Shown: positions 37,401 through 54,520 of the stretch, one piece after another | How positions within the stretch are numbered: the first letter of the stretch is position 1 | Layout of the letters: the number at the start of each line of letters is the position of its first letter | IMG/VR virus record: IMGVR_UViG_2751185828_000002 | Source: a virus | Taxonomy: Duplodnaviria; Caudoviricetes | Direction: 5' to 3' (one strand) | DNA: 64,000 nucleotides | Program-made: the position numbers and the translations under genes | Notes under the pieces: generated by a model | Databases searched by the model: none | What the model saw: only the letters and a program-made list of their open reading frames with translations | What the model was told of the DNA's origin: nothing

Positions 37401-38465
37401 GACGCCGAGGCGCGCGGCATCGAGGCGGTCCGCCAGGATCGCGCGACCTACGATCTGCCGCCCGGCGATCCGCGCGCGGCGTCGCTGACGCGCGCCGTGG
37501 TGTTCGGCGCGCCGGATGCGGTGCTGATGGACCTGCCGCAGCTGACCGAGGACCAGCCGGCGCATCGGCCCCTCATTGCGGCGCACGCGGTTCCCTGGCC
37601 GGGCGAGATGGCGGTGTTTCGCAGCCCTTCGACGGATGGCTTCGAGCTGCTTACCAGCTTCGGCACGCGGGCCCGGCTCGGCTCGCTGGTCTCGGATTTC
37701 TATGCAGGCCCCACATCGCGCTTCGACCTCGGCAATGCGCTTGTGGTCGATCTGCTGACCGGCACGCTGGAAAGCGTCACCGACCTGACGCTGTTCGGCA
37801 GCGCCAACGCGCTCGCGATCGAGAGTGCGCCCGGCGCCTGGGAGATCGTGCAGGCGGGCGTGGCCGAGCTGCTGGCGCCCGGCCGGTATCGGCTGACCCG
37901 CTTGCTGCGCGGCCAGCGCGGCACCGAGGGCACCATGGGCAATCCGGCGCCTGCTGGCGCGCGGGTCGTCATGCTGGACACCGCGCTGGCGTTCCTGCCG
38001 ATCGCCGAGGCCGATCTCGGTATCCCATGGAACTGGCGCATCGGCCCCGCGAGCCGTCCGGTCAGCGACGAGACCTATGTCGCGCAGGCCTTCACGCCCG
38101 AAGGCGTCGGGCTGCGGCCGTTCTCCGTCGCCCATGTCGAGCAACCGTGGCGCAAGCCGCGCTCGCCCGGCGATCTCACCATCCGCTGGACGCGCCGGTC
38201 CCGTGCGCTCGCGGCCGACAGCTGGGGCGGGCTTGAGGTGCCGCTGGCAGAGGAACTGGAAGCCTACGAGGTCGAGCTCCTCGACGGCGCTGCCGTGAAG
38301 CGGCTGCTGAGCACGACCACGACCAGCGCGCTCTACACCACCGCCCAGCAAACCGCCGACTGGGGCGGGCCGCTCGGGCTCGGCGACAGCCTCACCGTCC
38401 GCATCTACCAGCTCTCCGCCCTCGTCGGGCAGGGCTCACCGAAAACCGTCACGCTCACATTCTGA
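34500..38465 (+). CDS. Baseplate multidomain 'megatron' (GTA TIM-barrel-like) protein
   Basis: 1321 aa; IPASGEF, FLIGTEM, YAADWSEY, GIDNYMPL, WFTELGCP. Confidence 0.9.
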   Translation: MATLVLGAAGAAIGGSIGGAILGVSAATIGGFIGSSIGSVVDSWIISSLAPTQRIEGARLDTLRITSATEGAVMPRLYGRMRMGGNIIWATDFREETKTTTQGGGKGGGGGKVKTTEYLYYASFAVALCEGPITGIGRIWADGKPMDLSGVTWRWYPGDEVQSPDPFIAAKMGAANTPAYRGTAYVVFEELALSTYGNRLPQLSFEVFRPLADPDTAEGLTCAVTMIPASGEFTYATQAIRKTDGGATVPENLNALPDATDMEEALDRLQAMAPAVESVSLVVAWFGNDLRAGSCKVRPGVEVSAKSTTPTSWSVNGVSRANAFLVSRDEQDRPVYGGTPSDFAVVQAIQEMKARGLRVTFYPFILMDVPPGNSLPNPYSDNAAEVGQPAFPWRGRITCSPAAGYAGSVDKTATAASQVAALFGAATPASFSVSGESVSWIGSPGDWGLRRMVLHYAHLCAAAGGVDAFLIGTEMPGLTTIRAGASTYPAVQGYRDLLADVRSILGSGTKIGYAADWSEYFGHQPGDGTGDVFFHLDPLWADTEIDFVGIDNYMPLSDWRDGFEHADAAEGWPAIYDRAYLQGNIAGGEGFDWFYASAADRSAQVRTPITDGAAGKPWVFRYKDLRSWWSTPHYDRPGGVESGTPTAWTPESKPIWFTELGCPAIDWGTNQPNVFFDPKSSESFTPYFSRGWRDDAIQRAYLEATYLWWGEAANNPVSSVYGGRMVHVPECAAWTWDARPYPFFPALTDVWTDGANWRLGHWLTGRLGAVSLAALVRHLCLRAGLSESRIDVSGLWGAVEGYAITALESPRASITMLSRHFGFDAVETEGVIRFVMRGRASVATLAPDDLVAAREGDILELTRGQETELPQALKWQFARADEDYDAALVEARRITVDTTRIASESFPMAVPPEEAERRCRRALMEAWVGRETAAFRLPPSRLALDPADAIRLAHDGRLVDLRLVSIADAEARGIEAVRQDRATYDLPPGDPRAASLTRAVVFGAPDAVLMDLPQLTEDQPAHRPLIAAHAVPWPGEMAVFRSPSTDGFELLTSFGTRARLGSLVSDFYAGPTSRFDLGNALVVDLLTGTLESVTDLTLFGSANALAIESAPGAWEIVQAGVAELLAPGRYRLTRLLRGQRGTEGTMGNPAPAGARVVMLDTALAFLPIAEADLGIPWNWRIGPASRPVSDETYVAQAFTPEGVGLRPFSVAHVEQPWRKPRSPGDLTIRWTRRSRALAADSWGGLEVPLAEELEAYEVELLDGAAVKRLLSTTTTSALYTTAQQTADWGGPLGLGDSLTVRIYQLSALVGQGSPKTVTLTF

Positions 38466-38472
38466 GGACCCC

Positions 38473-39549
38473 ATGTCCGACGCCACCACCCATCTCCTGC
38501 TGCCCTACATCCTCGCGGCGCAGGCCCAGAAGCATGTCACACACAATGAGGCGCTGCGGATCCTCGACGGGCTCGTCCAGCTCTCGGTTCTCGACCGGGA
38601 CTTGACCGCGCCGCCCGGCAGCCCCGCGGATGGCAATCGCTACATCGTCGCCTCGGGCGCGACGGGCGACTGGGCGGGCTGGGACCTGAATGTCGCGCTC
38701 TGGACCGATGGCGCCTGGCTGCGCCTGCCGCCGCGGACCGGCTGGCGGGCATGGGTCGAGGACGAGGGCCTGCTGCTGGTCTACGATGGGTCTGTCTGGG
38801 TCGGCACCACGCCCGCAGCGCTGCAGAACCTCGCACTGCTGGGCCTCGGCACGACGGGGGACGCCTCGAACGCGTTCTCAGCCAAGCTCAACGCCGCGCT
38901 CTGGACGGCAAAGACCGTCGCCGAAGGCGGCACCGGCGATCTGTTCTACACCATGAACAAGGAGGCCGCGGGCGACGATCTCGGGCTGACGCTGCAGACC
39001 GGCTTTGTGACCAAGGCGCTGGTCGGCCTGTTCGGCTCGGACAGGTTCCGGCTCGCCGTCTCGGCTGACGGCAGTACCTTCTTCGACGGGCTGAGCGTCG
39101 ACAACGCGAACGGCATCGTCGATCAGCCCCGGCTGCCGCGCTTCAAGGCGTACACCAACTACGACAACTATGTCGGCGTCGGGGCCTGGACGAAGATCGG
39201 CCTCAACAACACCGACCACAACGACCAGGGCGCCTTCGACGCCGCGAACAACCACTTCGTGGCGCCGGTTGACGGCACCTACCTCTTCGGCGCGACGCTG
39301 CTCTACAAGATCAACGCCAGCGCCACGGCCCGCATGCGCGGGCGGCTCGTCCTGAACGGCACCACCGAAATCCGCGGCTCCCTCGGCGAAATCTCCGCCA
39401 CCCACGTCTCGCTCGCCACCGCGATCTGGCTGCAGACCATGGTGCCGCTGACCGCGGGCGATACCGTCGAGCTGCAGGGATATTTCCGGGTCGCGGATGG
39501 CTACTTCGCCGCCGATCACACGTCCTTCTGGGGCTGCAAGGTCGGCTGA
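38473..39549 (+). CDS. DUF2793 tail-fibre protein with C-terminal C1q-like domain
   Basis: QAQKHVTHNEALRILDGLVQL; FKAY...AFD...FVAPVDGTYLF. Confidence 0.8.
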   Translation: MSDATTHLLLPYILAAQAQKHVTHNEALRILDGLVQLSVLDRDLTAPPGSPADGNRYIVASGATGDWAGWDLNVALWTDGAWLRLPPRTGWRAWVEDEGLLLVYDGSVWVGTTPAALQNLALLGLGTTGDASNAFSAKLNAALWTAKTVAEGGTGDLFYTMNKEAAGDDLGLTLQTGFVTKALVGLFGSDRFRLAVSADGSTFFDGLSVDNANGIVDQPRLPRFKAYTNYDNYVGVGAWTKIGLNNTDHNDQGAFDAANNHFVAPVDGTYLFGATLLYKINASATARMRGRLVLNGTTEIRGSLGEISATHVSLATAIWLQTMVPLTAGDTVELQGYFRVADGYFAADHTSFWGCKVG

Positions 39550-39856: not shown

Positions 39857-39917
39857 CCGCGCCCCATCCCCATTCATCAGCCCGCAATGACCCGCCCTCG
39901 TGGCGGGGTGAGCCGTG

Positions 39918-39959
39918 GTCTGCCTGACAGGCAGACGGGAAGGTCCAGTGGACCTTCCC
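39918..39959. repeat. Two abutting perfect hairpins
   Basis: GTCTGCCT-gac-AGGCAGAC then GGGAAGGTCC-agt-GGACCTTCCC. Confidence 0.75.
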
Positions 39960-40015
39960 AAGCGGCGAACGCACCGAGCCCTGCGAGGGGCCGGAAACTC
40001 GTTCTGGAGGCCCCC

Positions 40016-40690
40016 ATGACCACGACTTTCCACCGCCATTGGCGCGACGTGTCCGAGAGCACCTGGCGTTGGCCGAATTTCAGCCCGGCCGAAATCGCCT
40101 GCCGGGGCACCGGCAAGCTGCTGATCAACGAACCCGCGATCGACAAGCTGCAGGCGCTGCGCGACCGGCTCGGCAAGCCGCTGATCGTCCGCTCGGCCTA
40201 CCGCAGCCCCGAGCACAACCGCGCCGTGGGCGGCGCCACCCGCTCGAAGCACCTCGACGGCGCCGCGTTCGACATCGCCATGGCGAACCACGACCCGGTG
40301 GCCTTCGAGGCGGCGGCGCGGGAGGTCGGGTTCCTCGGCTTCGGCTTCTATCCGCGCTCGGGCTTCATCCATGTCGACCTTGGGCCCGCGCGGCAGTGGG
40401 GCGAGCGCTTCCCGGTCCGGGCGACGGCATTCGCAGCCGAGACGCCGCCCGCGCGCGAGGTTTTGGCGCAGAGCCGCACCATGAAGGGTGGCGGGGCAGC
40501 TGGTGTGGCGACGCTGGGCGCAGCCGGGGTCGAGGTTGCGCAGAGCGTCCTGGCCGAGACGCAATCCGCCATTCTGCCGCTCGTGCCGTATCTCGACACG
40601 CTTCGCTGGGTGTTCATCGCCGTCGCGCTCGGCGGCATCGCAGTCACGATCTATGCCCGCCTCGACGACTGGAAGCGGGGGCGGCGATGA
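40016..40690 (+). CDS. Endolysin, peptidase M15 family, with C-terminal hydrophobic segments
   Basis: SAYRSPEHN, SKHLDGAAFD, FIHVD zinc-peptidase motifs. Confidence 0.88.
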   Translation: MTTTFHRHWRDVSESTWRWPNFSPAEIACRGTGKLLINEPAIDKLQALRDRLGKPLIVRSAYRSPEHNRAVGGATRSKHLDGAAFDIAMANHDPVAFEAAAREVGFLGFGFYPRSGFIHVDLGPARQWGERFPVRATAFAAETPPAREVLAQSRTMKGGGAAGVATLGAAGVEVAQSVLAETQSAILPLVPYLDTLRWVFIAVALGGIAVTIYARLDDWKRGRR

Positions 40691-40944: not shown

Positions 40945-41104
40945 GAACGGGAGGCTGGCGACATGCCCGCCCGTGGTCGAGTATGGCAGGGAGTTCCAGG
41001 CGCGGGCGGCCGAGGAGCTGGCCTTGGTGCCACAGGGATCGGCGCTCGCGGACATGTTGAGCGACTACGCTGTCATGCGCAACCAGGCGCGGGCCTGCGG
41101 ATAG
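40853..41104 (+). CDS. Probable outer-membrane spanin lipoprotein
   Basis: Signal peptide with lipobox LLSG-C; overlaps the i-spanin in another frame. Confidence 0.7.
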   Translation: MMSNARCWKQRLAALAITTSLLSGCATVRSENGRLATCPPVVEYGREFQARAAEELALVPQGSALADMLSDYAVMRNQARACG

Positions 41105-41180
41105 CGCAGCGCGGTCAGCAAGGCCGCTCGATCACCACAGTGCTGGTTTCATGGCCCCGAAAGGGAAACGGCTCTTCCGC

Positions 41181-41645
41181 TCAGGATCGACGTGCGTTGT
41201 CGTCGCCAATCTCGATCTGAAGTTCTTCTGTTCGCAGCCAGATCGACAGGCTTTCCGTCGAGGCTTCCACCTGTTCCAGCTTCCGCAGGGCGCACTCCCA
41301 TACCGTCGCCACGCGCCACCCGTCTTCGAGGAGTCTTGTGCGAAGGGCACTGTCTCGAGCGGTGTTCGCATCGAACTTCGCCCGCCAGAACTCCCGCCGG
41401 GTTGCCGGTACGGTCGTGTAGCGGCACCCCTCGTGTCGGTGCCAGAAGCAGCCGTGCACGAAGACCACGGCGCGGTGCTTCGCAAGGACAAGGTCCGGTC
41501 GACCGTGAACCTTGCCGGAATGGAGCCGGAAGCGGAAACCGCGCGCGTGTAATGCGCGCCTGAGAGCCAGCTCGGGCTTGGTGTTCTTTCCCCTGATTCC
41601 CGACATCATCCGGGAACGGGTCTGCTGGTCCACGATATCGGTCAT
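41181..41645 (-). CDS. vsr: Very-short-patch repair endonuclease
   Basis: RSRMMSGIRGKNTKPE, RPDLV, FVHGCFWHRH, VWEC. Confidence 0.95.
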   Translation of the reverse strand: MTDIVDQQTRSRMMSGIRGKNTKPELALRRALHARGFRFRLHSGKVHGRPDLVLAKHRAVVFVHGCFWHRHEGCRYTTVPATRREFWRAKFDANTARDSALRTRLLEDGWRVATVWECALRKLEQVEASTESLSIWLRTEELQIEIGDDNARRS

Positions 41646-41712
41646 ATCCGTCCTGGTCTTCGTCCCTGAACCTGGTATACACCGGCTGAATGAAATTCGT
41701 CAGGAGCCTGAT

Positions 41713-43290
41713 TTGCCTTCCACTTTCGGCATTGTCGATCTGTTCGCCGGCCCGGGCGGACTTGGCGAGGGGTTCGCTTCCCTCGTCGAGGACGGCCATG
41801 CGCCGTTCCGGATCGGCATTTCGGTCGAGAAGGAGGCGTCGGCCCATCGGACCCTGACGCTGCGTGCTTTTCTGCGCGAGTACCGTGCACGTCATGGCGT
41901 CTTGCCGAAGGAGCTCATCGATTTCCATGCCGGGCTGGCATCCGAACCGGACTGGTCAGCCGTCGATGCCGAAGCCTGGCAGCATGCCATCGACGAAGCC
42001 CGCGCGCTTGAGCTCGGCACCAAGGCTGCGGCGACCGCCATTGATGGCGCCATCGCGACGCTGAAAGCAAAGTACGACGACACGATCCTGATCGGCGGCC
42101 CGCCCTGTCAGGCCTATTCCCTGGTGGGGCGTGTCCGTTCCAGAGGCAAGGTCGGCTACGTCCCGGAGGAGGATGCGCGGCACTACCTCTTTCGCGAGTA
42201 CATCCGGGTCCTCGACAAGCTTCGCCCGGCCGCCTTCGTTATGGAAAACGTCAAGGGCATGCTTTCGTCGACAGTCGAGAGCCGGCTTGTCTTCGAGATG
42301 CTGATGGAGGATCTGTCCTCGCTCGGCACGGGTCACGCCCATCACTACGAACTTCGTGCCGTCCGGGTCGAGGATGGCAAGGCCAGCCTGCAGGAAGCGT
42401 CACAGCCCTCGGACTTCATCGTGCGCTCCGAGGCGTTCGGAGTCCCCCAGCGTCGCCACAGGGTGATCATCGTCGGCATCCGTTCGGACCTCGCAGGACG
42501 GACCAGGGATGCGCAGATCGCTGTGTCGGGTAGAGTGCGGACCGTCCGCGATGTAATCGAAACGATGCCATCCTTGCGGAGCGGCATCAGCCGCGGGCTC
42601 GACGACGCGGCCGCCTGGCGGGAAGAAGTCGTCGGCGCCGCGAGCATGCTGGCCGGCATTTCCAAGGGGAAGGACGACCAGGCGCTCCGTGAGGCATTCC
42701 TGAGCGTTTCGGAGCGAGTGAAGGAAAATCCGCCTATCGTTCGGGCTGCGTCACGGTTGCCAGACGGCTACGGCACTTCAAACGATGAGTTGCTACAGTG
42801 GATCGAGCGACCGGAACTTCGCGCGATCGCTCAGCACGAGACGCGCGGGCACATGGCGTCGGACCTGGGCCGCTACTTGTTTGCTGCAGTGTTCGGAGCC
42901 GTCCGTGGCTGCAGCCCGAAAGCCGCCGATTTCCCTCTAGCGCTCAGCCCCGATCACCGAAACTGGCACAGCGGTGTGTTCAATGACCGCTTCCGGGTTC
43001 AGCTGGCGGACGAGGCATCGACCACGGTCACGAGCCACATCTCGAAGGATGGCCACTACTTCATTCACCCCGATCCGATCCAGTGCCGGAGCCTGACGGT
43101 TCGCGAAGCCGCCCGGCTGCAGACATTTCCTGACGATTACCTGTTTCTAGGCAACCGAACGCAGCAGTATGTCCAGGTCGGAAACGCTGTGCCGCCGCTC
43201 CTGGCACGTCAGATCGCAGCGGTTGTGCACGTCACGCTTCAAAAGCCAGCAACCCAGCGAACGAACATGTTCGTTTCAGCGAACGATTGA
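41713..43290 (+). CDS. dcm: C5-cytosine DNA methyltransferase with long variable region (525 aa)
   Basis: DLFAGPGG, GGPPCQ, ENVKG, PQRRHR, LTVREAARLQTFP, VGNAVPP; TTG start after CAGGAG. Confidence 0.95.
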   Translation: MPSTFGIVDLFAGPGGLGEGFASLVEDGHAPFRIGISVEKEASAHRTLTLRAFLREYRARHGVLPKELIDFHAGLASEPDWSAVDAEAWQHAIDEARALELGTKAAATAIDGAIATLKAKYDDTILIGGPPCQAYSLVGRVRSRGKVGYVPEEDARHYLFREYIRVLDKLRPAAFVMENVKGMLSSTVESRLVFEMLMEDLSSLGTGHAHHYELRAVRVEDGKASLQEASQPSDFIVRSEAFGVPQRRHRVIIVGIRSDLAGRTRDAQIAVSGRVRTVRDVIETMPSLRSGISRGLDDAAAWREEVVGAASMLAGISKGKDDQALREAFLSVSERVKENPPIVRAASRLPDGYGTSNDELLQWIERPELRAIAQHETRGHMASDLGRYLFAAVFGAVRGCSPKAADFPLALSPDHRNWHSGVFNDRFRVQLADEASTTVTSHISKDGHYFIHPDPIQCRSLTVREAARLQTFPDDYLFLGNRTQQYVQVGNAVPPLLARQIAAVVHVTLQKPATQRTNMFVSAND

Positions 43291-43316
43291 CAATCGTTCG
43301 CTCAGGTGAGATATAT
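43260..43316 (+). promoter_or_regulatory. Two perfect palindromes over a TTGACA -35 box; candidate operator/promoter of the Z1 operon
   Basis: AACGAACATGTTCGTT 43260-43275; AGCGAACGATTG-A-CAATCGTTCGCT 43278-43302; TTGACA 43287-43292; AT-rich GATATAT at 43310. Confidence 0.6.
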
Positions 43317-43478
43317 GGTTCGTGCCAGCATACGGCACTGTGTGTAACTCATCTGGATAGAGCGTAGGGGCGAGGCAAATCCCGAGCAGAAGCGTCGTTG
43401 GGCCCAGTCCACGGCGGGTCTGTGGAGATGTCTCTTCGACTGCGACCGCATTCCCTTCCAGATCATCGCGGAGAACCC

Positions 43479-46313
43479 ATGTCGCTCTCATCCCTTCTGA
43501 AGGACCTGCGCGTCCAATCGGGCCAATCGCTCCAGCAGGTCGCCGAAAAGGTCGGTTCGTCCAAGGCCTACCTGTCCGAGCTCGAACGCGGCGTGGCGAA
43601 GAACCCGGGCATCGACCTGCTGAAGGCGCTCGCCCACAACTACGGCGTTTCCGTTGCGACGCTGATTGGCGAAGCCGACGCGGCGCCGTTGCCCCCGCCC
43701 GTGGCCGGTCAGGTCGAGGCATGGGTAAGCAACATCCGGAAGGAGCAGGCTGCCGGGCTGGATCTCGAAACCGCGGCAAACGAGGCCCGCGCGTCCTTCG
43801 AGCGACTTCTTGGCCCGCTCGACCCGCAGCACGAGGCGAACTGGAAGGCGGCTGTCAGCGAGCTTGAAGCCGCGTTCGAGCGGAAGATCGAGTATCTTGG
43901 CAACTATTCGCTCCGCAAGCCGCGACGGCCGCACTGGTATGACGGTCCGCGCGCGGGCGATCTGCACTGGCCGAAGCTCGAGGCCTTCCTGCTGTCTCGC
44001 AAGGGCTGGTCGAAGGAGACCGTTGCGAGCATCGACGCAACATCGACCGAGGTAGTCTCGCTTCTCGAAAATCCCGCCCAGAGCGAGTTCCGGGGTCGAG
44101 GACTGGTGGTCGGCTATGTGCAGAGCGGGAAGACTGCCAACATGGAAGCGGTCATCGCCAAGGCGGTCGATGCAGGGTACCGCTTCGTGATCATCCTGAC
44201 AGGCATGACAAATTCGCTGCGAACGCAGACTCAGGATCGCATCGAGTCCGATCTGGTCGAGCGCAACAAGTACGGGTGGCACAGCCACACCACAAGCGAC
44301 TCCGACTTCCGGAAGCCGGCGAGTAAGTGGTTTTCGATTATGGACCCGGTGCAGATCGCTGCCGTGAAGAAGAATGTGGCGCCACTTGAAGCGCTTCTCG
44401 GCACGATCGAGAAGACGCCGCCAACGCACCGCGCGCGCATGCCTGTGCTTATTGTAGATGACGAATGCGATCAGGCCGGCGTCAATGCGACCGGCAGTCA
44501 GTACAACATGACGGCGATCAACGCGCTCATCCGCAAGATTCTCGCGGCACTGCCGAAGGTCCAATACGTCGGATACACGGCGACGCCCTTTGCAAACGTG
44601 CTGATCAACCCGGAGAAGCCGACCGGCGGCCTGGACGACCTATATCCCGAGGACTTCATCACGAGCCTGCCAAAGCCCGAAGGTTATTTCGGTCCGGAGA
44701 GCCTGTTCGGGCGCGACCCGATCGATGCCGATGACGAGAAACCGGAGGAGTCCGGACTCGACATGATCCGTGGGGTCGATGACGCCGAGGTAGCCCTCGT
44801 CCGTCCACCGTCAGCGAAGGACCGTTTCACCTTTGAGCCCGGCATCCCGAAATCGCTCGACAAGGCGCTTTCCTACTTCGTGCTTGCAACCGCCGCCCGC
44901 TATGTACGTGGGCAGTCGCGCCAGCACAGTTCGATGCTGGTGCACACGACGGTCTACACGCACCCGCATCACGCGCTGGCCGACAAGATCGCGGCCTGGC
45001 AGAACGGGCTCGCCAAGAAGATCTCGAAGGGCGACGAGAAGACGTTCGATCGACTTGAGAGGCTCTGGCTCGAAGAGGTGGCCAAGGTCGATGCGGGCCG
45101 CTTCGGCCTTGCGCCGACATCGTTCAGCGCGCTGAGGCCTGAGCTCGAGAAGGTCCTCGATGACATCGCGATCGTGGTCGAGAACAGCGACAGCGAGACG
45201 CGGCTCGACTACGCGTCGGGGCCGAAGAAGTACATTGTGGTCGGCGGCTCGGTGCTCGCGCGTGGTCTCACAATTGAGGGGCTGGTCGTCAGCTACTTCG
45301 TGCGCTCATCGAACCAGTACGACACCCTCCTTCAGATGGGCCGATGGTTCGGATATCGGCCCGGTTACGAGGACCTCCCGCGGATCTGGATGACCGACGA
45401 CCTGCGGACATCGTTCCGTGATCTGGCGACGGTCGAGGCCGAGATCCGGGCCGACATTCAGCAGTACCGCAAACGCGAGGTGACACCGGCGGATTTCTCG
45501 ATCCGGGTGCGACGCATTCCTGGATTGGCCATCACCGCTGCCAAGAAGATGTATGCGGCCAAGGCATGCGACGTGAGCTTCTCGGGAGAGCACATCCAGA
45601 CCATACGCTTCCCGCACCGTGACGAGGACTTTCTTCGGCACAACTGGGAGGCTGCGGCCGAGCTGGTCGATGCGGCAGCGAGCCAAGGTATCAAGCCTGC
45701 GCGGCGCGGCCGTCTGATCGAAGGCGTATCCTTCGATCTCGCCATGAAGTTTCTGGAGACTTACAGAAGTGACCAGCGCGATCTGATCTCGGGAAAGCTG
45801 TTGGAATACATCCGGCTCGAGGCGAGTCGGGCCGATCAGCCGTACGAAACCTGGAACATCGCGATCGTCGAAACAGGCGGAACCCGCCGCTCCGTTGAGC
45901 CGCTTGGTGCCTTCGGCAATGTCGGCCTCGTCAACCGGGCACGCCTCAAGGGACTGACACGCGACGGTCTCGCCGACATCAAGGCTCTGATGTCGCGGGA
46001 CGACGTGCTTATGGACGTCACCGGCTCGCCCGATGACAGGTCTTGGGACAGCGTTAAGGAATTCCGTCAGGCGCTGGTCGGTGACCGGGTTCCACTGCTG
46101 CTCCTTTACGCAATCGATGAGGCGTCGGTACCGAGGTCTGAGAAGCTGCGCGAACCCCTCGGCGCGGTGCGCGACATGCTGGGAATTGGCCTCGTTCTGC
46201 CAGAGCGGGGCGCGAAGACAAGCTATGTCCGCGTCCCGATCAACCAGGACGACGGCGACGAGGAGGACGTTCAGGCAGACATCGACGGCGATGCCGGACA
46301 GGCTGCGAAATGA
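43479..46313 (+). CDS. XRE-HTH + SF2-like ATPase + Z1-domain protein
   Basis: SLQQVAEKVGSSKAYLSELERG HTH; GYVQSGKT; LIVDDECD; LARGLTIEGL...LLQMGRWFGYRPGY. Confidence 0.9.
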   Translation: MSLSSLLKDLRVQSGQSLQQVAEKVGSSKAYLSELERGVAKNPGIDLLKALAHNYGVSVATLIGEADAAPLPPPVAGQVEAWVSNIRKEQAAGLDLETAANEARASFERLLGPLDPQHEANWKAAVSELEAAFERKIEYLGNYSLRKPRRPHWYDGPRAGDLHWPKLEAFLLSRKGWSKETVASIDATSTEVVSLLENPAQSEFRGRGLVVGYVQSGKTANMEAVIAKAVDAGYRFVIILTGMTNSLRTQTQDRIESDLVERNKYGWHSHTTSDSDFRKPASKWFSIMDPVQIAAVKKNVAPLEALLGTIEKTPPTHRARMPVLIVDDECDQAGVNATGSQYNMTAINALIRKILAALPKVQYVGYTATPFANVLINPEKPTGGLDDLYPEDFITSLPKPEGYFGPESLFGRDPIDADDEKPEESGLDMIRGVDDAEVALVRPPSAKDRFTFEPGIPKSLDKALSYFVLATAARYVRGQSRQHSSMLVHTTVYTHPHHALADKIAAWQNGLAKKISKGDEKTFDRLERLWLEEVAKVDAGRFGLAPTSFSALRPELEKVLDDIAIVVENSDSETRLDYASGPKKYIVVGGSVLARGLTIEGLVVSYFVRSSNQYDTLLQMGRWFGYRPGYEDLPRIWMTDDLRTSFRDLATVEAEIRADIQQYRKREVTPADFSIRVRRIPGLAITAAKKMYAAKACDVSFSGEHIQTIRFPHRDEDFLRHNWEAAAELVDAAASQGIKPARRGRLIEGVSFDLAMKFLETYRSDQRDLISGKLLEYIRLEASRADQPYETWNIAIVETGGTRRSVEPLGAFGNVGLVNRARLKGLTRDGLADIKALMSRDDVLMDVTGSPDDRSWDSVKEFRQALVGDRVPLLLLYAIDEASVPRSEKLREPLGAVRDMLGIGLVLPERGAKTSYVRVPINQDDGDEEDVQADIDGDAGQAAK

Positions 46314-47329
46314 CGGACGGAACCCGTGCGGGCATCGGCTGGGAACGCCTGCGGCAGGAGTCAGGTGCGCAGGCGAGTGATCTGGGCGTGCCCTCCCTGG
46401 TGCTTGACGCCTCGGCTGGCGCTGGCCCGGCCCGCCTCGCGATAGGAGCTGAGCGCGAAGCGCGGCTTCTTGTCCCGCTCGCAGCCGGTGAGCGGTTCCC
46501 GATGGTCCACGATACGCACGGTCTTGAACTCAGGGACAGCGTGCTTCTGCTGCAGGGACAGCCGGTCCGGTTCATCGATGTCGCCTGCCGCGGCGAGCGT
46601 CTCGAGGCCGTCTTCGAGAAGCTGGTCGATGAAGTCGTTCGGCGCCTGAGAGGGGGCGCCGCGCCGGCGAACGCGCTCGAGGATGCAATCACCGACTTTC
46701 GCAATCTCCTCTCGGGCGCTAACCGCGAGCGTCCTTCGATCGAAACCGCACTCGGGCTGATTGGCGAGCTCATCATCCTGAATCGGCTACTTCTTGTTGA
46801 TCCCGACGCCTGGCAACTCTGGACCGGGCCGGCTGGCGGCCGTCACGACTTCCGTGGCGGTGACCGGGCAATCGAGGTCAAGACTTCGCTTCGTGCCCAG
46901 TCCCGAATCGTGGAGGTATCTGCAATTGACCAGCTGGCAGCGCCCCCCGGTGGACATCTGCTGCTCGCGCACTGCGTGCTCGAGTATGACGGGGCTGGGC
47001 CTCTTTCGGTTGTGGGTGAGGCGACGCATGCGTGCACGATCGCAAGCGATCCTGCCGCCGTGGCCGATCGGCTCGCCCTGCTCGGATACGATCAAGCCCA
47101 GGCCGATGAGTGGTCCTCGTTCAGGTTCTCCCTGTTCTCGCAGGAGCTCTATTCGGTGACCGACGGCTTTCCGCGGCTCACCCCCGCCTCGTTTGCGGAG
47201 GGAGAACTGCCGGTCGGGGTCAGCCACTTCCGCTACCGGGTGAATCTCGATTTTGCGTCGGAGTTTCGATTCAGGCCCGCCGAGGCCGACAATGCGCTTC
47301 AGGAGATAGTGTCATGTCTAAGCCTCTGA
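46310..47329 (+). CDS. PD-(D/E)XK-motif nuclease (DUF4420/MzaD-like)
   Basis: GLIGEL, WTGP, HDF...IEVKTS. Confidence 0.85.
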   Translation: MTDGTRAGIGWERLRQESGAQASDLGVPSLVLDASAGAGPARLAIGAEREARLLVPLAAGERFPMVHDTHGLELRDSVLLLQGQPVRFIDVACRGERLEAVFEKLVDEVVRRLRGGAAPANALEDAITDFRNLLSGANRERPSIETALGLIGELIILNRLLLVDPDAWQLWTGPAGGRHDFRGGDRAIEVKTSLRAQSRIVEVSAIDQLAAPPGGHLLLAHCVLEYDGAGPLSVVGEATHACTIASDPAAVADRLALLGYDQAQADEWSSFRFSLFSQELYSVTDGFPRLTPASFAEGELPVGVSHFRYRVNLDFASEFRFRPAEADNALQEIVSCLSL

Positions 47330-49173
47330 GTCTCCATGCGGAACGCTTCGCGGCTGCAGGTGGCATGGCTGCCGACGGAATGAAGAAGCTTCTGGGCACA
47401 CCTGCGCTGTCCCTGCTGGAGACGGTGGTGAGGGAGACGGTCCAGAACAGCTGGGATGCACGGCTCGTCGAGTCCGGCGTCGGCTACAGGATTGGCTTGC
47501 GAGAGCTGCGGCCAGAGGAGGCTGCCATTCTCCGCGATGAGATTCTCGCCAAGCTCCCTCCGTCCAAGGAGTCCGCAGACCCACTGCTTGCCTACCTTTC
47601 CTCGAAGCATCCGGTCGTCATGGAGATTTCCGACTGGAGGACCCGTGGCCTCGGCGGTCCATCTCGGGCGAACGTGCTGCCGAAGCCAGGGGAGCACAAC
47701 GACTTCGTGAATTTCGTGCGCAACATGGGTGCCCGTCGTGACATGGCGGGCGGTGGCGGCACTTATGGCTACGGGAAGAGTTCGCTCTATCAGCTCAGTC
47801 GATGTGCCACGGTCCTCGTTGACTCGGTCTCGCTGACTCCTTCCGCGCGGATCGTTCACCGCTTCATTGGATGCCACTTGGGCGATGCCCACGACAGCAA
47901 GCGCCATGGCCGGCTGACCGGTCGCCACTGGTGGGGCGTGGCCGATGCCGACGACGCGGACGTGGTCGATCCGGTTACTGGTCGCAGCGCCGTTCGGCTG
48001 CGGAAGGCGCTCGGGCTTCCTGATCGGGGAGCCGACGCCACGGGAACAACGCTGGTCGTGCTCGACCCCGATCTCGAGGACCGCCCGCTCGAGGCGGTTG
48101 CGGCCGAAATCCAGGAGGCGCTTCTCTGGTACCTCTGGCCAAAGATGCTCCTCGGCGCCGATGGCCAAAGGGCCATGGCCATCGAGGTCGAACTCAACGG
48201 AGAGCTGTTGCCGCTTCCGGCACCCGAAGATTTCCCGCCACTCGACCTGTTCGTTGAGGCCTATCGCACCGTGAAGGCTGGAGGGCCAAACCTGACCAGG
48301 ATCGCTTCCGAGCGGCCCATCCAGCACCTCGGCCTCTGCTCCATCAGACGCGGCTTCAGGAGGCCTCGGCAGTTTCTCGGCGACCCCGCTGGCAGCATCA
48401 TCCCGGCCACCAGTGCGCACATAGCCCTCATGCGTCCGGTTGAACTGGTCGTGAAGTACATCGAGGGCACCCACCTGCCAAGTGACACCGTCGAATGGGC
48501 CGGGGTCTTCATCTGTGACGACGATCCCGTAGTTGAGCAAGCTTTCGCCGACGCTGAGCCACCTGCCCACGACGACTGGATCCCGGACAAGATGCCGAAG
48601 AGCTGGGCAAAGACCTTCGTGCGGGTTGCGCTGGCAAGGCTGAAGTACCTCGCGGCATCATACGCATATCCGGCTTCGTCCTCCACGTCCGGAGCATCCG
48701 AGCAGCCACCGCTTGCCAAGGCGGCCGACCTTCTCGGCAGCTGCATGCCCGCAGTCGGAGGTACGGGCGGCGGTGGCGGCGGGTCGCGCGGCCGTGGAAA
48801 TGGCCGAGGCGGCGGTGGTCGCGGCGGAGGCCGTAGCTGGCGGGTCAGCGAGCCACGTTTCGTAGCGTTGCAGGAAGGCGCTACCGGGGCCGAAGCGCTC
48901 TTCGAGATCGACGTGGACAACAATACGGAGCGGGCAATCCGCCTTACCGCCATACCTGCTCCTGTGATCGATGGTGTCTTGGCAGGTCCGGACGAGGGTG
49001 ACGTCGTCGTCACGTTCGTATGCTGGGAAGATCAGGACGGCAATCAGCTGACCACGTCGCCTGAGCTGGTCGCAACGCCGGACGAGAGCGGCAGCTATCG
49101 TGCGCGTATCATCGTGCCTGATGTTGCAGCGGCCGGAGTGCGAGTGGCGGCAGCTGAGCAGGCACCGTCATGA
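47314..49173 (+). CDS. GHKL (MORC/MutL-like) ATPase
   Basis: RETVQNSWDA (N-box), ISDWRTRGLGG, GGGTYGYGKS; Gly/Arg-rich linker before a C-terminal domain. Confidence 0.75.
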   Translation: MSKPLSLHAERFAAAGGMAADGMKKLLGTPALSLLETVVRETVQNSWDARLVESGVGYRIGLRELRPEEAAILRDEILAKLPPSKESADPLLAYLSSKHPVVMEISDWRTRGLGGPSRANVLPKPGEHNDFVNFVRNMGARRDMAGGGGTYGYGKSSLYQLSRCATVLVDSVSLTPSARIVHRFIGCHLGDAHDSKRHGRLTGRHWWGVADADDADVVDPVTGRSAVRLRKALGLPDRGADATGTTLVVLDPDLEDRPLEAVAAEIQEALLWYLWPKMLLGADGQRAMAIEVELNGELLPLPAPEDFPPLDLFVEAYRTVKAGGPNLTRIASERPIQHLGLCSIRRGFRRPRQFLGDPAGSIIPATSAHIALMRPVELVVKYIEGTHLPSDTVEWAGVFICDDDPVVEQAFADAEPPAHDDWIPDKMPKSWAKTFVRVALARLKYLAASYAYPASSSTSGASEQPPLAKAADLLGSCMPAVGGTGGGGGGSRGRGNGRGGGGRGGGRSWRVSEPRFVALQEGATGAEALFEIDVDNNTERAIRLTAIPAPVIDGVLAGPDEGDVVVTFVCWEDQDGNQLTTSPELVATPDESGSYRARIIVPDVAAAGVRVAAAEQAPS

Positions 49174-50075
49174 CGGCCATTGCCTATCCCTTCCTTCGTC
49201 CCGGCCCCGACCGGATCAGCGCCGGGCCCTGGCTCGTCACGCGTGACGGCGAACCCTGCGTCTTCGCGGACGGCCACCTCGATCACTTTGACTACTCGAC
49301 CAACCTCGAGGCAGTTCGTCATTTCAAGGTCGATGTGGAAGGGGTAGCCGCTGACACCGGGCTTAGGGCCGACGAGATCAAGCTCCTCTGCGTCGTCACT
49401 TTCGGCACCGGTGGCCGCCGCCTCCAGCGCGCGAGAAGAATTGTTACCCGGGAAGTGATCCAAGCCGGTCGCGAGGCCATTGTACTGGCGCTAGCAATCG
49501 ATGGTCGCGAGGTCTCAGAGCTCTTCGTGCTCACGACCGAAATCATCCTTCTTTCGTCGGGTACGGTTCGTCGCCGGGTCTCGCCAGTCACGACAGGTGC
49601 AAGACTTTGGCGAGACGAATTTCGCGCCGCGGTAGAACCGCTCGGTGCGCGCTTCCCGATGGAAGCCGTGAGCTTTGCGACTGTGTTCCCGACCGGCCAT
49701 GGTGATGCACTCTGGTACCTCGACTGGTCACCGCAGACCCTACACCATGACTTCGCAACGTCGGTCCGACTGCTGATCAACCTGGACAGGCCGGCCTTTG
49801 TTGAAGCCGTGCAGCAAGCGGACGAGGTCACACTGAGGATGCTAATGTGCTCGGTAACCACCCAGATGGTCAGGTCGGCCATCGATCTCGATCATTTTCC
49901 GCTGGACCAAACGGAGGCCAGTCCTTCCTCGGTGTCAGCTGTGATCGAGGCATGGGTGGAACAGGCGTTCCCCGGTCAGTCGGCGGAGGCTGTGCGGACG
50001 CTGGCACAGCATGACCCGTCACGTTTTGAACTCGCGATCGGAAGCCTCTTTGCAGGAGAGCTCGGCAATGAGTGA
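49170..50075 (+). CDS. Hypothetical protein (301 aa), no domain recognised
   Basis: ATGA overlap with the ATPase; in operon. Confidence 0.75.
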   Translation: MTAIAYPFLRPGPDRISAGPWLVTRDGEPCVFADGHLDHFDYSTNLEAVRHFKVDVEGVAADTGLRADEIKLLCVVTFGTGGRRLQRARRIVTREVIQAGREAIVLALAIDGREVSELFVLTTEIILLSSGTVRRRVSPVTTGARLWRDEFRAAVEPLGARFPMEAVSFATVFPTGHGDALWYLDWSPQTLHHDFATSVRLLINLDRPAFVEAVQQADEVTLRMLMCSVTTQMVRSAIDLDHFPLDQTEASPSSVSAVIEAWVEQAFPGQSAEAVRTLAQHDPSRFELAIGSLFAGELGNE

Positions 50076-50814
50076 GTTCCGCCTCATGCCCCGCCTCGAC
50101 AATCACGGCGTTCGGCGACTGATTAGCCTGCCGGATTTGCTGCGAACAGGCTCCATCAGCGAGCGAATGGAGGCGGCCGGCACTTCGGTCTCATATGCTT
50201 CCAGTGGCGGATCGCGAGCCGACGCGGCCGATCTGAAAGTACTCCAAGAGCAAAGCGTTGCCCTTGCCAAACGCTTCGGATTTCCGAACGAGGGTCGAGC
50301 CGCCGGCAGGGCCTCGTTCGATGCAGAATTTGCGCAGTGGCTGGTGGAGGCTCCCATCATCAGCGGCGGTGAGGCGTTGCGGGATGATGTCTGGGCATTC
50401 GTTGCATGTTGTATCGCCCCGGAGGTGGTGCTCTGGCGCTTCGAGGACGGCCACGCTGATCGCTTCCATGGTGGTCTGCGCAACACCTTCCAGCGGCTCT
50501 GGCTCCGAGCACGTTCGCTGGATCGGGGTGCAGGAGCGCCGCAACGGTGGCAACTCGTCGAGGCGCTGTCGGAGGATGCGGTGGTTCAGATTGTGGAAAG
50601 GCCATCCATCGGGGGCGACCCCATGCTCGCTCGCGCAATTGCAGAAGCTTGGCTCGCGACCGCGAACCGGATTGGTGCGCGCCGAATGGAGGATGTGACT
50701 CGCCGAGCGGTGCGAAGAATCAGGATCGACAACGAGATTACGTGCCTGGCCTCGTTGGGTGAGCCAGAGCTTGTCAGCCGACTGCAGGGATTTTTCGACG
50801 AGGCTGCGTTATGA
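50068..50814 (+). CDS. Hypothetical protein, DUF6339-like
   Basis: DDVWAF...RF...RNTFQRLWLRA; 8-nt overlap with the previous gene. Confidence 0.65.
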   Translation: MSEFRLMPRLDNHGVRRLISLPDLLRTGSISERMEAAGTSVSYASSGGSRADAADLKVLQEQSVALAKRFGFPNEGRAAGRASFDAEFAQWLVEAPIISGGEALRDDVWAFVACCIAPEVVLWRFEDGHADRFHGGLRNTFQRLWLRARSLDRGAGAPQRWQLVEALSEDAVVQIVERPSIGGDPMLARAIAEAWLATANRIGARRMEDVTRRAVRRIRIDNEITCLASLGEPELVSRLQGFFDEAAL

Positions 50815-50866
50815 CCTTCGCGGCAACAAGATTGCTGCAGGGTCAACTGAGGCCGAAGCGAAGTAG

Positions 50867-52180
50867 TCAGTAGCCCCAACCAGAGCTGACGGGGGGATCG
50901 CCAAGCGGATCTTCAAGCTCGTCGACTGCCGGGAACAGATCGCCTTCGCCCGCAAAGGATTTCGCAGCATCCAGTCCGGTTTGAAGATCAAGCTCGGCTA
51001 ACCGTGACTCTACCCACTGCAGCATCCGGCCCAGATCCGAGTCGACGGCTAGGCTGGCTTCCTGCGGCAGGCCGGAGATCCATTCGCGGATTTCGCGGGC
51101 CTCCCGACGCAGCTCAATTATCTGCCGTAGGTGAGAGAGTCGCGTCTCCTCGCGTTTGAGGCGGGCCTGTGCGAGCTGTCGCCGTTGCTGCAGGATTTTC
51201 CATTGCCTCTCGCGCTCCTCACGCTCCTCGCGGCGCACACGAATGGTCTCTAGAATGAGCTCTATGCCGGCGACTATTTCGGGGACCATCCGTTCCACGC
51301 GTTGCGTCTTGCCGTCACCCCATGTCTTCCGCAGGCCGTCCGCCCACGCATCGATCGAGAACACGAGTTCGCCGGTCCACGCGGTCACATATTCCGGCCA
51401 GGGTGGACTGCTGCCGAACGAAATGCTGTCCCAATCGTTGCGCCGAAGGGACCGTGCCCGTTTCTCTTTCCTCTTCTCCTCCCGAGCGATTTCTTCTGGG
51501 GTCGGTACGTATTTCAGCCTTCTCGTTCGTTCGAGCAGGGTGAAGCTGATCTTGTCCGCGCCCTTCTGAACGGACATCTTCTCTCCGTCCGCTGTCAGGC
51601 TCAGCCCGACTTCGTCGAGCGTCCGCGCCAACGCGTCGAGGAAAAAGCAAGCACGTTCGGCGGACGGAGCGCCGACGATCACGCCACACTGGCCTGGCGC
51701 CGTGGCGCTGAGGACGCCCTCCTTGTCCGGCTTCCTGGTCCGAAGGAATCTCACCGTTTTCGCCACCGAGGCGTGTGGGTTTTCTACCAGAGGCATTGGG
51801 GATTCTGGCGTCGCCTTGATGGTAGCAGCCCGGACTTCGCGCTCAGCCTTTCGCTTCCGGGCGAGTTCGGCGACGCTGTCAGGAAGAGCTGAGCTGGCCC
51901 CGCGGATGCTCACCTGATCGAGGCTTCGATCCCTCAGTTCAAGGAAGGGCGGCACTTTCGGTTGTTCTCCGGCTGCCACCTTGGCCCAGTACCCCCGGGG
52001 CGGTACGGGAATGCGATGACGACTGCAGGCCTTCGCGAGCCCCCGATCCGATATCCCGAATTCCTGTGCAAGCGCTGTCATCGGCTTGCTCCAGACCAGG
52101 TCGTAGAGGTCCCGACGGCTAAGTATCTGTGAAGTCAACAATTCTTGAACTCTCCGCAATACAGCTTCGCGCGGAAGCAA
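50867..52180 (-). CDS. Hypothetical protein with N-terminal HTH-like domain (start uncertain, 52141-52180)
   Basis: LYDLVWSKPMTALAQEFGISDRGLAKACSRHRIPVPPRGYWAK; 437-aa ORF. Confidence 0.75.
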   Translation of the reverse strand: MLPREAVLRRVQELLTSQILSRRDLYDLVWSKPMTALAQEFGISDRGLAKACSRHRIPVPPRGYWAKVAAGEQPKVPPFLELRDRSLDQVSIRGASSALPDSVAELARKRKAEREVRAATIKATPESPMPLVENPHASVAKTVRFLRTRKPDKEGVLSATAPGQCGVIVGAPSAERACFFLDALARTLDEVGLSLTADGEKMSVQKGADKISFTLLERTRRLKYVPTPEEIAREEKRKEKRARSLRRNDWDSISFGSSPPWPEYVTAWTGELVFSIDAWADGLRKTWGDGKTQRVERMVPEIVAGIELILETIRVRREEREERERQWKILQQRRQLAQARLKREETRLSHLRQIIELRREAREIREWISGLPQEASLAVDSDLGRMLQWVESRLAELDLQTGLDAAKSFAGEGDLFPAVDELEDPLGDPPVSSGWGY

Positions 52181-52247
52181 TATCCCGCAGCGCCGTTTTA
52201 GCTGTCATCGCGACCCGGGTGAAACTTGGAGAAGGTTGGATATCAGA

Positions 52248-52263
52248 CCCATCCCCTCCGCCA
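52248..52263 (+). other. Candidate att core resembling a tRNA-Ser 3' end
   Basis: CCCAT-CCCCTCC-G-CCA fits T-stem 3' strand, acceptor 3' strand, discriminator G and CCA; no tRNA body upstream. Confidence 0.5.
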
Positions 52264-52726
52264 GTTCTTCCTGGTGTCACGGGTTGTTGCAGCAGGGGCC
52301 CGGTCATCTGGATCGGCAAGCTGCCGGTTTTCTGCTGTAGCGCGGCGCGCATTACCAGTTGCCGGCGGCCGGACCTGCGCCATTGTCAATGGGATCAAGA
52401 TAACAAGGACGGTCAGACCTGCCGATCGGCCCGGCAGAGATCGCCGACGGCAGGCTGGCTGAGGCCGGCCAAGATCACTTTGCGCAGGCCATCTGCGCGC
52501 CACTGTCGCGCATGCCCGCTTGTGGGCGAGCCCTAAGCCTGCCTTGGCAACCTGTTGCCCGCCAGCAGGGATGGCCAGGCGGGCAGGGGCAGCGGTTGGG
52601 ATCAGCCCGCTTGCTCACCGGCCGACCGCCCTGCCGCTGCCATCGGCGCGGCGGGTGCAGCGGCGGCTTGTGGCGCGGCGGGCCGAACGAGACAAAAGCG
52701 CAAGCCGAACGGGACGGGTGGTCGGC

Positions 52727-53119: not shown

Positions 53120-53925
53120 GCGCGTGCCCCTGCGGGGGCCGACAAGCTGAGCCCGTATTTGCCGGCCAAAGCCTGACGGATCACACTGATCTGCGAATCG
53201 AGGGCGGCGCTGCCGTCGGTGATCAGGGACACGATCTCAAAGACTGGCCCGGTCCAACGCGGGGATAGATTTGCCGGTTCACCACGCCCGATCACGTTGA
53301 TCAACACCTTGTCGAGGCCGATGGCGGTGCCGGCCGCGTCCGCCTCGACCCCGTTCTGCCAGGCGCGCAGACCTGACGGCAGCAACTGCACCTCGTTCAA
53401 AACCATCTGCCCGACAGCACGAGGCAGCTTTCCGGTCGTCGAGCCTGCAAGGTTGATCGTCGAGGCGACAGACCCATCCGCGAAATTGCTATGGAAGAAC
53501 CGCATCGTCCGGGCCGTTCCCCCATTGATGCTGGCCGGCCCGCCCAGGAAATAGACCTGTTGGCCGGAGGTGCGCGTCGCGACGACGAACAGGCGGACGC
53601 CGATAAGATCGGCCGGATTGGCCAGCATCAGGCTGCCGACATCCAGAGACAGCCCGCCGTTGACGATCGGAACGGCGGCATCTGCCGGGGCGGCGTCGAA
53701 CATGGCGCCGGCGCCTCCGGCATTCGGGACCGCGGTAACGTTGCCATCGGCCCCGACGGTGGCCCGCGACGCCGCGAGGTGGATCGGGACCTGACCGCGG
53801 GCAACGCCATAAAGGTCCGGGATCGTCAGCGGCCGCGTCCAGGCATAGCCGGGGCCTTTCAACGCCCTGATCTCGCCCATCGGCCCCTTGATCCGTTTGG
53901 CCCTGGTCAGGTCCAGCTTTGGCAT
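53116..53925 (-). CDS. Tail-associated beta-sandwich (LamG/ConA-like) protein
   Basis: AWQNGVE...VIGRG...WTGPVFEIV pattern; TGATG overlap. Confidence 0.55.
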   Translation of the reverse strand: MPKLDLTRAKRIKGPMGEIRALKGPGYAWTRPLTIPDLYGVARGQVPIHLAASRATVGADGNVTAVPNAGGAGAMFDAAPADAAVPIVNGGLSLDVGSLMLANPADLIGVRLFVVATRTSGQQVYFLGGPASINGGTARTMRFFHSNFADGSVASTINLAGSTTGKLPRAVGQMVLNEVQLLPSGLRAWQNGVEADAAGTAIGLDKVLINVIGRGEPANLSPRWTGPVFEIVSLITDGSAALDSQISVIRQALAGKYGLSLSAPAGARA

Positions 53926-54518
53926 CAGACCAGCACCACCAGCTGGTTCACGGCAGGCGCGGCGGCGTCATAGGCGGACTGCGTGGTCACCACGGTCACA
54001 GTCCAGCTGGTGCCGTCCTTGCCGGCGGCACCTGTGGGGCCAGCGGCGCCGGTGTCGCCCTTGTCGCCTTTGGCGCCCGTGGCACCGGTGTCGCCTTTGT
54101 CCCCCTTTGGGCCGGTCGGGCCCATAAGGCCCTGAGGACCTGCCACGCCTTGCGACCCTTGCGGTCCCTGCGGCCCGATCGGACCCGTCGCGCCGGCCGG
54201 GCCGGCCGCGCCTGTATCGCCCCTGTCGCCCTTGAGGCCGGTCGGGCCACGCGCACCGGCCGGGCCGGCCTCTCCCCGCGCCACCGTCAGGACCCCGGTC
54301 GCCGGGTCATAGCGCGTCACATCGCCGGCGACGGTCGACAGGCCGGTAATCTGCCGCACGCCGGCCAGGGCCTGGTCGCGCGCCGCCAGCAGCTGCGCGG
54401 CGGTCTCATCGAGCGCCCTGGCCGCGGCAATCGCCCCATCGATCCGGGCGCGATCCTCGGGCGACACCGTCCCCGGCGGCCCCTGAAACCCGACCTCGAT
54501 CACCTCGATATCCGCCAA
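53925..54518 (-). CDS. Collagen-like (about 30 Gly-X-Y triplets) tail-fibre protein
   Basis: [10 protein letters not shown]...GKDG; C-terminal TQSAYDAA; TTG start. Confidence 0.8.
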
Positions 54519-54520
54519 CG

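Follow-up and report, generated by a model that had tools for sequence, protein, structure and literature searches.

The 64,000-nucleotide stretch of viral DNA analyzed here (Duplodnaviria, Caudoviricetes; IMG/VR record IMGVR_UViG_2751185828_000002), called the window below, carries at positions 41181-50814 a cassette of seven genes encoding a Vsr endonuclease, a Dcm-type methyltransferase, a Z1 helicase-like protein, a DUF4420 nuclease, an ATPase and two further proteins, here called B and C. The locus was interpreted as a copy of a widespread and previously predicted defense cassette, the putative Type I system of Miller, Stern and Burstein (2022), which here forms the terminal cargo of a prophage within a roseobacter-group genome and most likely acts in a restriction-modification-like manner (estimated probability of this reading, about 0.6). 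Its most likely function would be the ATP-driven restriction of DNA that lacks the 5-methylcytosine (5mC) mark of the host.

A check of the open reading frames (ORFs) in the window found all seven genes present and open, forming a compact unit of 9.7 kb with clear boundaries. The gene vsr (41181-41645, minus strand) encodes a very-short-patch T:G mismatch endonuclease, is divergent from dcm, and was matched by PF03852 (8.3e-29), TIGR00632 (137 bits against a cut-off of 97.85) and the PADLOC Vsr model (7e-35). The C5 cytosine DNA methyltransferase gene dcm (41713-43290, plus strand; PF00145, 1.9e-42, and TIGR00675) lies in a reading frame that is open from 41512; homologue lengths and alignments indicated the TTG at 41713 as the likely start, giving a protein of 525 aa. 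The motifs of the FxGxG, PCQ, ENV, QRR and GN classes are intact in this protein as DLFAGPGGL, GGPPCQAYS, MENVKG, PQRRHR and GNAVPP.

The third gene (43479-46313, plus strand) encodes an XRE-type helix-turn-helix (HTH) domain, a DEAD-like domain and a Z1 domain, a helicase-like DNA motor that resembles the H subunit of CglI. The frame is open from 43398 (944-971 aa), and the likely start is the ATG at 43479 behind a GGAG, which yields 944 aa. Matches were obtained to HTH_3 (PF01381, 8.6e-11), Z1 (PF10593, 4.2e-70) and the PADLOC models Helicase_II (1e-41) and MzaC (1.6e-86), and the Walker A motif G239..GKT246 (GxxxxGKT), the Walker B motif DDECD at 354-358 and the sequence DTLxQMGRWFG were invariant in seven homologues. 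The following gene (46310-47329, plus strand) encodes a DUF4420 nuclease of the PD-(D/E)XK class (PF14390, 1.5e-42) in which E153, D180 and E189-x-K191 were invariant, again across seven homologues. It is followed on the same strand by the ATPase gene (47311-49173; 620 aa, probably GHKL/paraMORC-like, with a Gly/Arg-rich linker and a C-terminal domain), by the gene for protein B (49170-50075; 301 aa, without a family match and in the position of PDC-M33B of the candidate system PDC-M33 discussed below) and by the gene for protein C (50068-50814; 248 aa, an all-alpha member of the DUF6339 family and the equivalent of PDC-M33C). The identities of Vsr, Dcm, the HTH-Z1 protein and the PD-(D/E)XK protein, which the original prediction had read from motifs, were thus confirmed by Pfam, NCBIfam and PADLOC profile matches.

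The last five genes are tightly coupled, as had been proposed from overlaps at 46310, 47314, 49170 and 50068. Four overlaps are indeed present, of 4 nt (46310-46313), 19 nt (47311-47329), 4 nt (49170-49173) and 8 nt (50068-50075); the one placed at 47314 begins at 47311, the ATG to which the ATPase start was revised. The predicted absence of AIPR was borne out, with zero AIPR matches in Pfam scans of eight locus genes and the scanned flanking ORFs. Among the locus proteins, there were also no Pfam matches to PF19191 or PF19192.

Relatives of the ATPase were sought with an exact pattern in 185,579 genomes, one per species. They were present in at least 497 of these species genomes, distributed over many phyla, and strong full-length matches occurred in 4 of 401 sampled Pseudomonadota, this genome included. 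Profiles of all seven proteins were then run on the ORFs of 79 retained loci, which span Alpha-, Beta- and Gammaproteobacteria, Acidobacteriota, Nitrospinota, Nitrospira, Actinomycetes, Gemmatimonadales and Verrucomicrobiia. The order Z1-DUF4420-ATPase-B-C on one strand was kept in 75 of the 79, most of the others being cut by contig ends, and at each junction between these genes, 73 to 75 of the 75 have no more than 10 nt. Where at least 4 kb was available on both sides (49 loci), dcm was present in every case and vsr in 45, on either flank and in either orientation. Three neighborhoods found by ATPase identity likewise held the same five-gene operon with dcm and vsr, and further copies were located on an Agrobacterium conjugative plasmid and a Synechococcus plasmid. 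The original prediction had made its proposal depend on whether the last three genes are conserved together with Z1 and dcm; because the five-gene order and dcm are strongly conserved, the proposal stands on this point.

The same distribution bears on a role in DNA repair instead of defense, in which a MutL-like ATPase, a helicase and a nuclease would assist Vsr in the very-short-patch repair of deaminated 5mC. Escherichia coli MutL is cited as interacting functionally with Vsr by Iyer et al. (2008; PMC2292703), and an association with repair endonucleases was noted by Miller et al. (PMC9523054). An accessory of this kind would sit poorly with the sporadic occurrence just described, both across species genomes and among the sampled Pseudomonadota, with carriage on a prophage island and on plasmids, and with the finding that vsr was the gene missing from 4 of the 49 complete loci and dcm never was. 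We regard a purely repair-related role as very improbable.

The gene set of the window corresponds to an architecture already in the literature. A putative "Type I" defense system was described by Miller, Stern and Burstein (2022; Nat Commun 13:5731, PMC9523054, Suppl. Table 11) as comprising a Z1 protein of 925 aa, a 704-aa protein with a non-significant MORC match, a DUF4420 protein of 298 aa, a DUF6339 protein of 231 aa and an unannotated protein of 310 aa, together with a cytosine methyltransferase and an association with DNA repair endonucleases. Every element of that description (Z1, DUF4420, the cytosine methylase and three extra genes) was found in the window, matched by family and size and not by cluster sequences. 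The published system is an unnamed computational prediction, and the window copy differs from it in the XRE HTH fused to its Z1 protein and in its position as prophage cargo.

An older class of operons is also relevant. In the operons described by Iyer, Abhiman and Aravind (2008; PMC2292703), a Z1-type SFII helicase is combined with an E-D-ExK protein of the restriction-endonuclease (RE) fold and a MORC or paraMORC GHKL ATPase, often with DCM and VSR. The motif DThhQXuRhFG that defines Z1 there is matched by DTLxQMGRWFG of the window protein, and EPPAH (E416-H420) of the window ATPase would correspond to the ExxxH motif named for paraMORC2. Two extra proteins like B and C are not described for this "third type" of operon in the text consulted. 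By family content and motifs, the locus was classed as an intact member of the Miller Type I system, itself read as a paraMORC-type form of the Z1 operons of 2008.

The comparison with mzaABCDE, a system attributed by Miller et al. (PMC9523054) to Gao et al. 2020 (Science 369:1077) and represented in PADLOC and NCBIfam by models of MzaB-D, revealed homology without identity. The Z1 protein is MzaC-like and the DUF4420 nuclease MzaD-like, and a second ATPase is present in both systems; the scores of 374 bits against a cut-off of 1500 (MzaC, NF041933) and 62 against 420 (MzaD, NF041934), however, lie below the equivalog thresholds. The ATPase belongs to a different family, with no match to MzaB by PADLOC at E<=1 or by NF041932 in a genome search at 1e-10. 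The window further differs from Mza in lacking MzaA and AIPR (MzaE), in having the two extra proteins B and DUF6339, and in that its five-gene core is always accompanied by dcm and usually by vsr. The relation to Mza, and the distinction from it, that had been predicted were therefore both upheld by the MzaC and MzaD scores far under their cut-offs and the missing MzaB and AIPR matches.

AIPR also matters for the possibility that the cassette is an abortive-infection or addiction module, whose machine would turn on host DNA or arrest growth once something, such as a phage anti-restriction protein or the loss of the cassette itself, upsets methylation or the complex. The relatives Mza and Miller Type II are reported (PMC9523054, PMC2292703) to carry this "abortive infection" protein, and the cassette, at whose edges sequence identity breaks off sharply, behaves as a selfish mobile unit. 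The Pfam scans, by contrast, found neither AIPR nor another known suicide effector at the locus, and a restriction system that marks its own DNA would need just such a constant association with a methylase and Vsr. An addiction module was judged distinctly unlikely, though less so than the repair role.

A further related type is that of CglI and NgoAVII, in which a 5mC methylase is combined with a DEAD-Z1 H subunit and the nuclease is an R subunit with B3 and PLD domains (Zaremba 2014, PMC4267653; Toliusis 2018, PMC5861437). The DEAD-Z1 subunit of CglI is an ATP-driven double-stranded DNA translocase that is needed for cleavage (Toliusis 2018, PMC5861437). The window Z1 protein matched the REBASE-derived Helicase_II model (1e-41) and retains both Walker motifs as well as that of Z1; in contrast to CglI/NgoAVII, B3 and PLD domains were found in no gene of the locus, where the nuclease is a DUF4420 PD-(D/E)XK protein, and CglI has neither a GHKL ATPase nor B and C proteins. 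The Vibrio cholerae WASA systems (WonAB, Shedu) were also considered and are unrelated to the window cassette.

A working model was built from the protein families and from CglI. In this model, Dcm would mark host DNA with 5mC, and Vsr would mend the T:G mismatches that arise from 5mC deamination. The five co-translated proteins would form an ATP-dependent machine that cuts unmarked DNA, with the DEAD-Z1 protein as a double-stranded DNA translocase, like the CglI H subunit, and DUF4420 as the PD-(D/E)XK cutter. The GHKL-like ATPase, the immunoglobulin-like (Ig-like) protein B and the DUF6339 protein C would constitute a second ATP-driven module. It is on these grounds that we infer the formation of a complex, an unmethylated-DNA target, the role of each ATPase, the regulation of the operon and its anti-phage activity. 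The original prediction of a 5mC-marked, ATP-driven multi-subunit restriction system was sound in that the cassette is methylase-linked, has several ATPases and a nuclease, and is not Mza; its mechanism is one that we, too, infer. The claim that the locus could be matched to no named system, taken as unmatched novelty, did not survive, since the architecture was published as the (unnamed) Type I system in PMC9523054, the operon class was described in 2008, and the last three genes correspond to the candidate PDC-M33.

The assignment of the ATPase was examined by several methods. There were no matches to the protein in Pfam, NCBIfam, PHROG or PDB sequences, and the sole match was to PADLOC PDC-M33A (1.5e-10), aligning residues 98-170 with positions 104-169 of the 627-position model (66 positions). 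Within the family, E42xxxN46xxD49A50, D108..G113LGG, G150TYGYGK156, E416PPAH420 and a downstream GT are invariant, and four of the motifs (ExxxNxxDA, D..GLGG, GTYGYGK and GT) are collinear with the four Bergerat motifs of MzaB-like proteins, in an alignment of an N-terminal profile of 111 sequences that is not significant (hhalign E 0.14). Alignments of the family to 12 MzaB-like proteins and to the best HATPase_c_3 (PF13589) match of the genome, presumed to be MutL, were not significant either. A search of PDB sequences with the ATPase profile gave a best E of 0.47, and a Pfam HATPase_c match appeared in 1 of 30 homologues, weakly (0.029). More than 1,400 clusters of ATPase homologues were found, none of them named; the nearest named ESM Atlas clusters of the N-terminal part, HATPase_c_3 and Sacsin (0.88-0.89), were taken as a lead only. 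The ATPase is called "probably GHKL" and nothing firmer because the order of the motifs fits but the profile-profile score is not significant.

Proteins B and C were similarly analyzed. Protein B had no family match in Pfam, NCBIfam, PADLOC or PHROG, and its profile retrieved nothing from PDB sequences; it is homologous to the gene in the same position of loci L001 (42% identity) and L002 (30%). In the structural model (predicted local distance difference test [pLDDT] score 82), an Ig-like beta-sandwich at the N terminus is followed by a helical domain at the C terminus, and a fold search returned generic Ig-like beta-sandwich matches only, with Z at most 8.7, among them the Pycsar AGS-C domain (Z 8.3). 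No function was drawn from these matches for protein B.

Homologues of protein C carry PF19866 (DUF6339); the window copy itself scored 13.5 bits against PF19866.4, an older version of the model, which is below threshold. Its family has 39 invariant columns, many of them charged, including GEALRDDVW, GGxRNxFQRLW and ERP. The protein was confidently modeled as all-alpha (pLDDT 93, predicted template modeling score 0.88), and the comparison with solved folds gave no convincing match: the best E in Foldseek against PDB was 0.066, and the best Z in a wide VIA-align search was 6.5, covering the last three helices only and within the chance range for helical models. The profile of protein C against PDB sequences reached a best E of 0.63. 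Two of the five effector proteins of the cassette are without a Pfam family, and a third (DUF6339) has a confident fold without a solved counterpart.

The last three genes also occur as a unit of their own. Distant relatives of the ATPase located in shorter loci matched PDC-M33A better than the window protein does (1.7e-32 and 3.7e-22). Locus L010 has the arrangement vsr / ATPase / 304 aa / 238 aa (weak DUF6339) / dcm, and L011 contains vsr, dcm and ATPase / 270 aa / 281 aa. Locus L021 is a genuine PDC-M33 locus (dcm / M33A / M33B / M33C) whose M33C matches Pfam DUF6339 at 3e-40, and in L022 the trio stands beside a non-Dcm methyltransferase and a PAPS-reductase-like gene. Z1 and DUF4420 were absent from all four of these loci. 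Because such trio loci lack Z1 and DUF4420, the window locus was read as an Mza-like Z1/DUF4420 pair joined to a PDC-M33-like trio, with dcm and vsr alongside.

PDC-M33 (A, B and C; Payne et al. 2024, bioRxiv 10.1101/2024.01.29.577857) has the same gene order as the window trio, similar sizes (about 620 aa, about 280-300 aa and about 250 aa for the DUF6339 protein) and an adjoining C5 methylase. It differs in having no Z1 or DUF4420, and the window proteins B and C gave no PADLOC match to PDC-M33B or PDC-M33C at E<=1. Alignments by hhalign of the B and C profiles with single proteins in the PDC-M33B and C positions were not significant, and four distant proteins in these positions were too divergent for useful alignment. 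PDC-M33C and window protein C share the Pfam family DUF6339; PDC-M33B and window protein B are linked by position and size only. On this comparison the window trio appears to be a distant form of the candidate PDC-M33ABC. Elsewhere, the trio with a DNA methylase gene, and with Vsr in some loci, would make up a complete system by itself, and the context of L022 indicates that it may work with modifications other than 5mC.

The occurrence of the trio on its own raises the question of whether two autonomous systems are combined in the window: a restriction system of the CglI kind (Dcm, Vsr, DEAD-Z1, DUF4420) and, embedded within it, an independent PDC-M33-like trio. Such an arrangement would be expected from the trio loci beside dcm with or without vsr (L010, L011, L021) or another methyltransferase (L022), and from the definition of PDC candidates as genes embedded in other defense systems; the Agrobacterium plasmid copy, too, has Z1, ATPase, B and DUF6339 listed in its incomplete gene table and DUF4420 not. 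Independence is hard to reconcile, on the other hand, with the invariant five-gene order in 75 of 79 loci and a DUF4420-ATPase junction of 10 nt or less in 73 of 75. Moreover, the Z1 and RE-fold nuclease operons of the literature are, in the texts consulted, accompanied by a MORC or paraMORC ATPase, for which the ATPase of the trio is the sole candidate here, and a single methylase serves the whole locus. Two separate systems were considered unlikely, although the most credible of the alternatives to a single restriction-modification-like cassette.

A bolder possibility was entertained tentatively. The ATPase, the Ig-domain protein B and DUF6339 might be an autonomous module that monitors DNA methylation and works on DNA by way of a protein fold so far absent from solved structures; DUF6339 would then be a nuclease of a new kind or a 5mC reader. 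In the seven-gene form, this module would be coupled to a superfamily 2 (SF2) translocase-nuclease pair. If this were true, the cassette would be a two-motor restriction machine unlike any characterized restriction-modification type.

Several points weigh against the restriction-modification-like interpretation of the cassette. It presumes an interaction of the seven proteins, and the GHKL assignment of the ATPase is drawn from motifs, as neither Pfam and PDB searches nor profile-profile comparison gave a significant match. No nuclease is recognizable in the trio where it stands alone, which makes the division of labor proposed for the seven-gene form tentative. The function and mechanism of Type I were left for further investigation by its authors (PMC9523054), and the PDC systems, proposed by "guilt by embedding" from genes embedded in other defense systems, are candidates only. 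Finally, a tblastn search of 50,697 phage records with the ATPase yielded no match.

Comparative genomics has now singled out this type of system on three occasions (2008, 2022 and 2024); it is common and moves on prophages and plasmids. As the window copy is intact and compact, with clear boundaries and a putative regulator of its own, it is a practical candidate for a first experimental test.

Two palindromes over the end of dcm bear on the putative regulator. One of 16 bp (43260-43275) is followed by a perfect one of 25 bp, in the form 12+1+12 (43278-43302; a 100% complementary inverted repeat). They share CGAAC/GTTCG half-sites and span the stop codon of dcm as well as a TTGACA box, with the HTH-Z1 gene a short way downstream. 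We propose that the region 43260-43302 is a putative controller-protein-like operator for the HTH of the Z1 protein, and that this N-terminal XRE HTH probably represses the operon at the upstream palindromes in the manner of a fused controller protein. The fusion is a minority feature, present in L001 (Tistlia) and missing from L002 and L012-L014. A scan for promoters and terminators found sites no more numerous than in shuffled sequence. Parts of the five-gene operon were matched, at 95% identity or more, by contigs that three studies had assembled from RNA libraries, which is compatible with transcription and weak evidence for it, since carry-over of DNA was not excluded. The segment 41377-42884 (most of dcm and part of vsr) was uncovered in all four RNA runs, which does not imply silence.

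The genomic context agreed with the predicted cargo slot after the lysis genes. Upstream on the plus strand lie a phrog_4271 tail protein (34500-38465), a DUF2793 fiber (38473-39549) and, directly before the island that contains the cassette, an M15 peptidase endolysin (39887-40690). The guanine-plus-cytosine (GC) fraction, about 0.68-0.72 in the window, drops to 0.61-0.65 over roughly 41-52 kb. Beyond the island is a second phage tail module on the minus strand (53925-61939) with a collagen-repeat protein, a tail-tip fiber and a 1725-aa Phage-tail_3/fn3 protein, its set of tail genes lying at 55383-61939; because this module faces the end of the first prophage, the island was taken to lie between two convergent phage-derived regions. 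A megablast search of the tail and lysis region against phage records produced one short match only.

Identity profiles confirmed that the cassette is mobile. Roseobacter sp. HKCCA0434 and a metagenome-assembled genome contain copies of the island (41176-52280) at 96.9-97.6% identity, but their adjoining tail and lysis genes reach only 86-89%, and the identity breaks sharply at 41176 and at 52263-52280, which suggests that the cargo was recently exchanged between related prophages. The stretch shared with Loktanella atrilutea is 41037-50818 and ends just past the DUF6339 gene, indicating that the seven genes are the mobile unit. Between this end and the edge of the island, an ORF of 437 aa (50867-52180, minus strand) converges on the operon. 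It has no family match and an Arg/Glu-rich, coiled-coil-like C-terminal half, lies within the low-GC island and was absent from all related loci tested; it is a passenger, outside the conserved system.

Three further observations were made. In L022 (G063:C11, 6823-13153) the methyltransferase resembles TRAM/RNA-uracil methyltransferases and matched PADLOC mad2 at 4e-22, and an ATP-dependent DNA ligase gene lies nearby. The Agrobacterium copy (L035, 6249-12433 of plasmid pAtCFBP5507a of A. salinitolerans), for which dcm and vsr are also not listed in the incomplete gene table, is situated in a defense island with a DEAD/DEAH box helicase, a protein with an EcoRII N-terminal effector-binding domain, an ATP-binding protein and an HNH endonuclease. 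In the window itself, the GC fraction also dips to 0.59 at 27408-28010 (minus strand), at a 200-aa ORF inside the tail operon.

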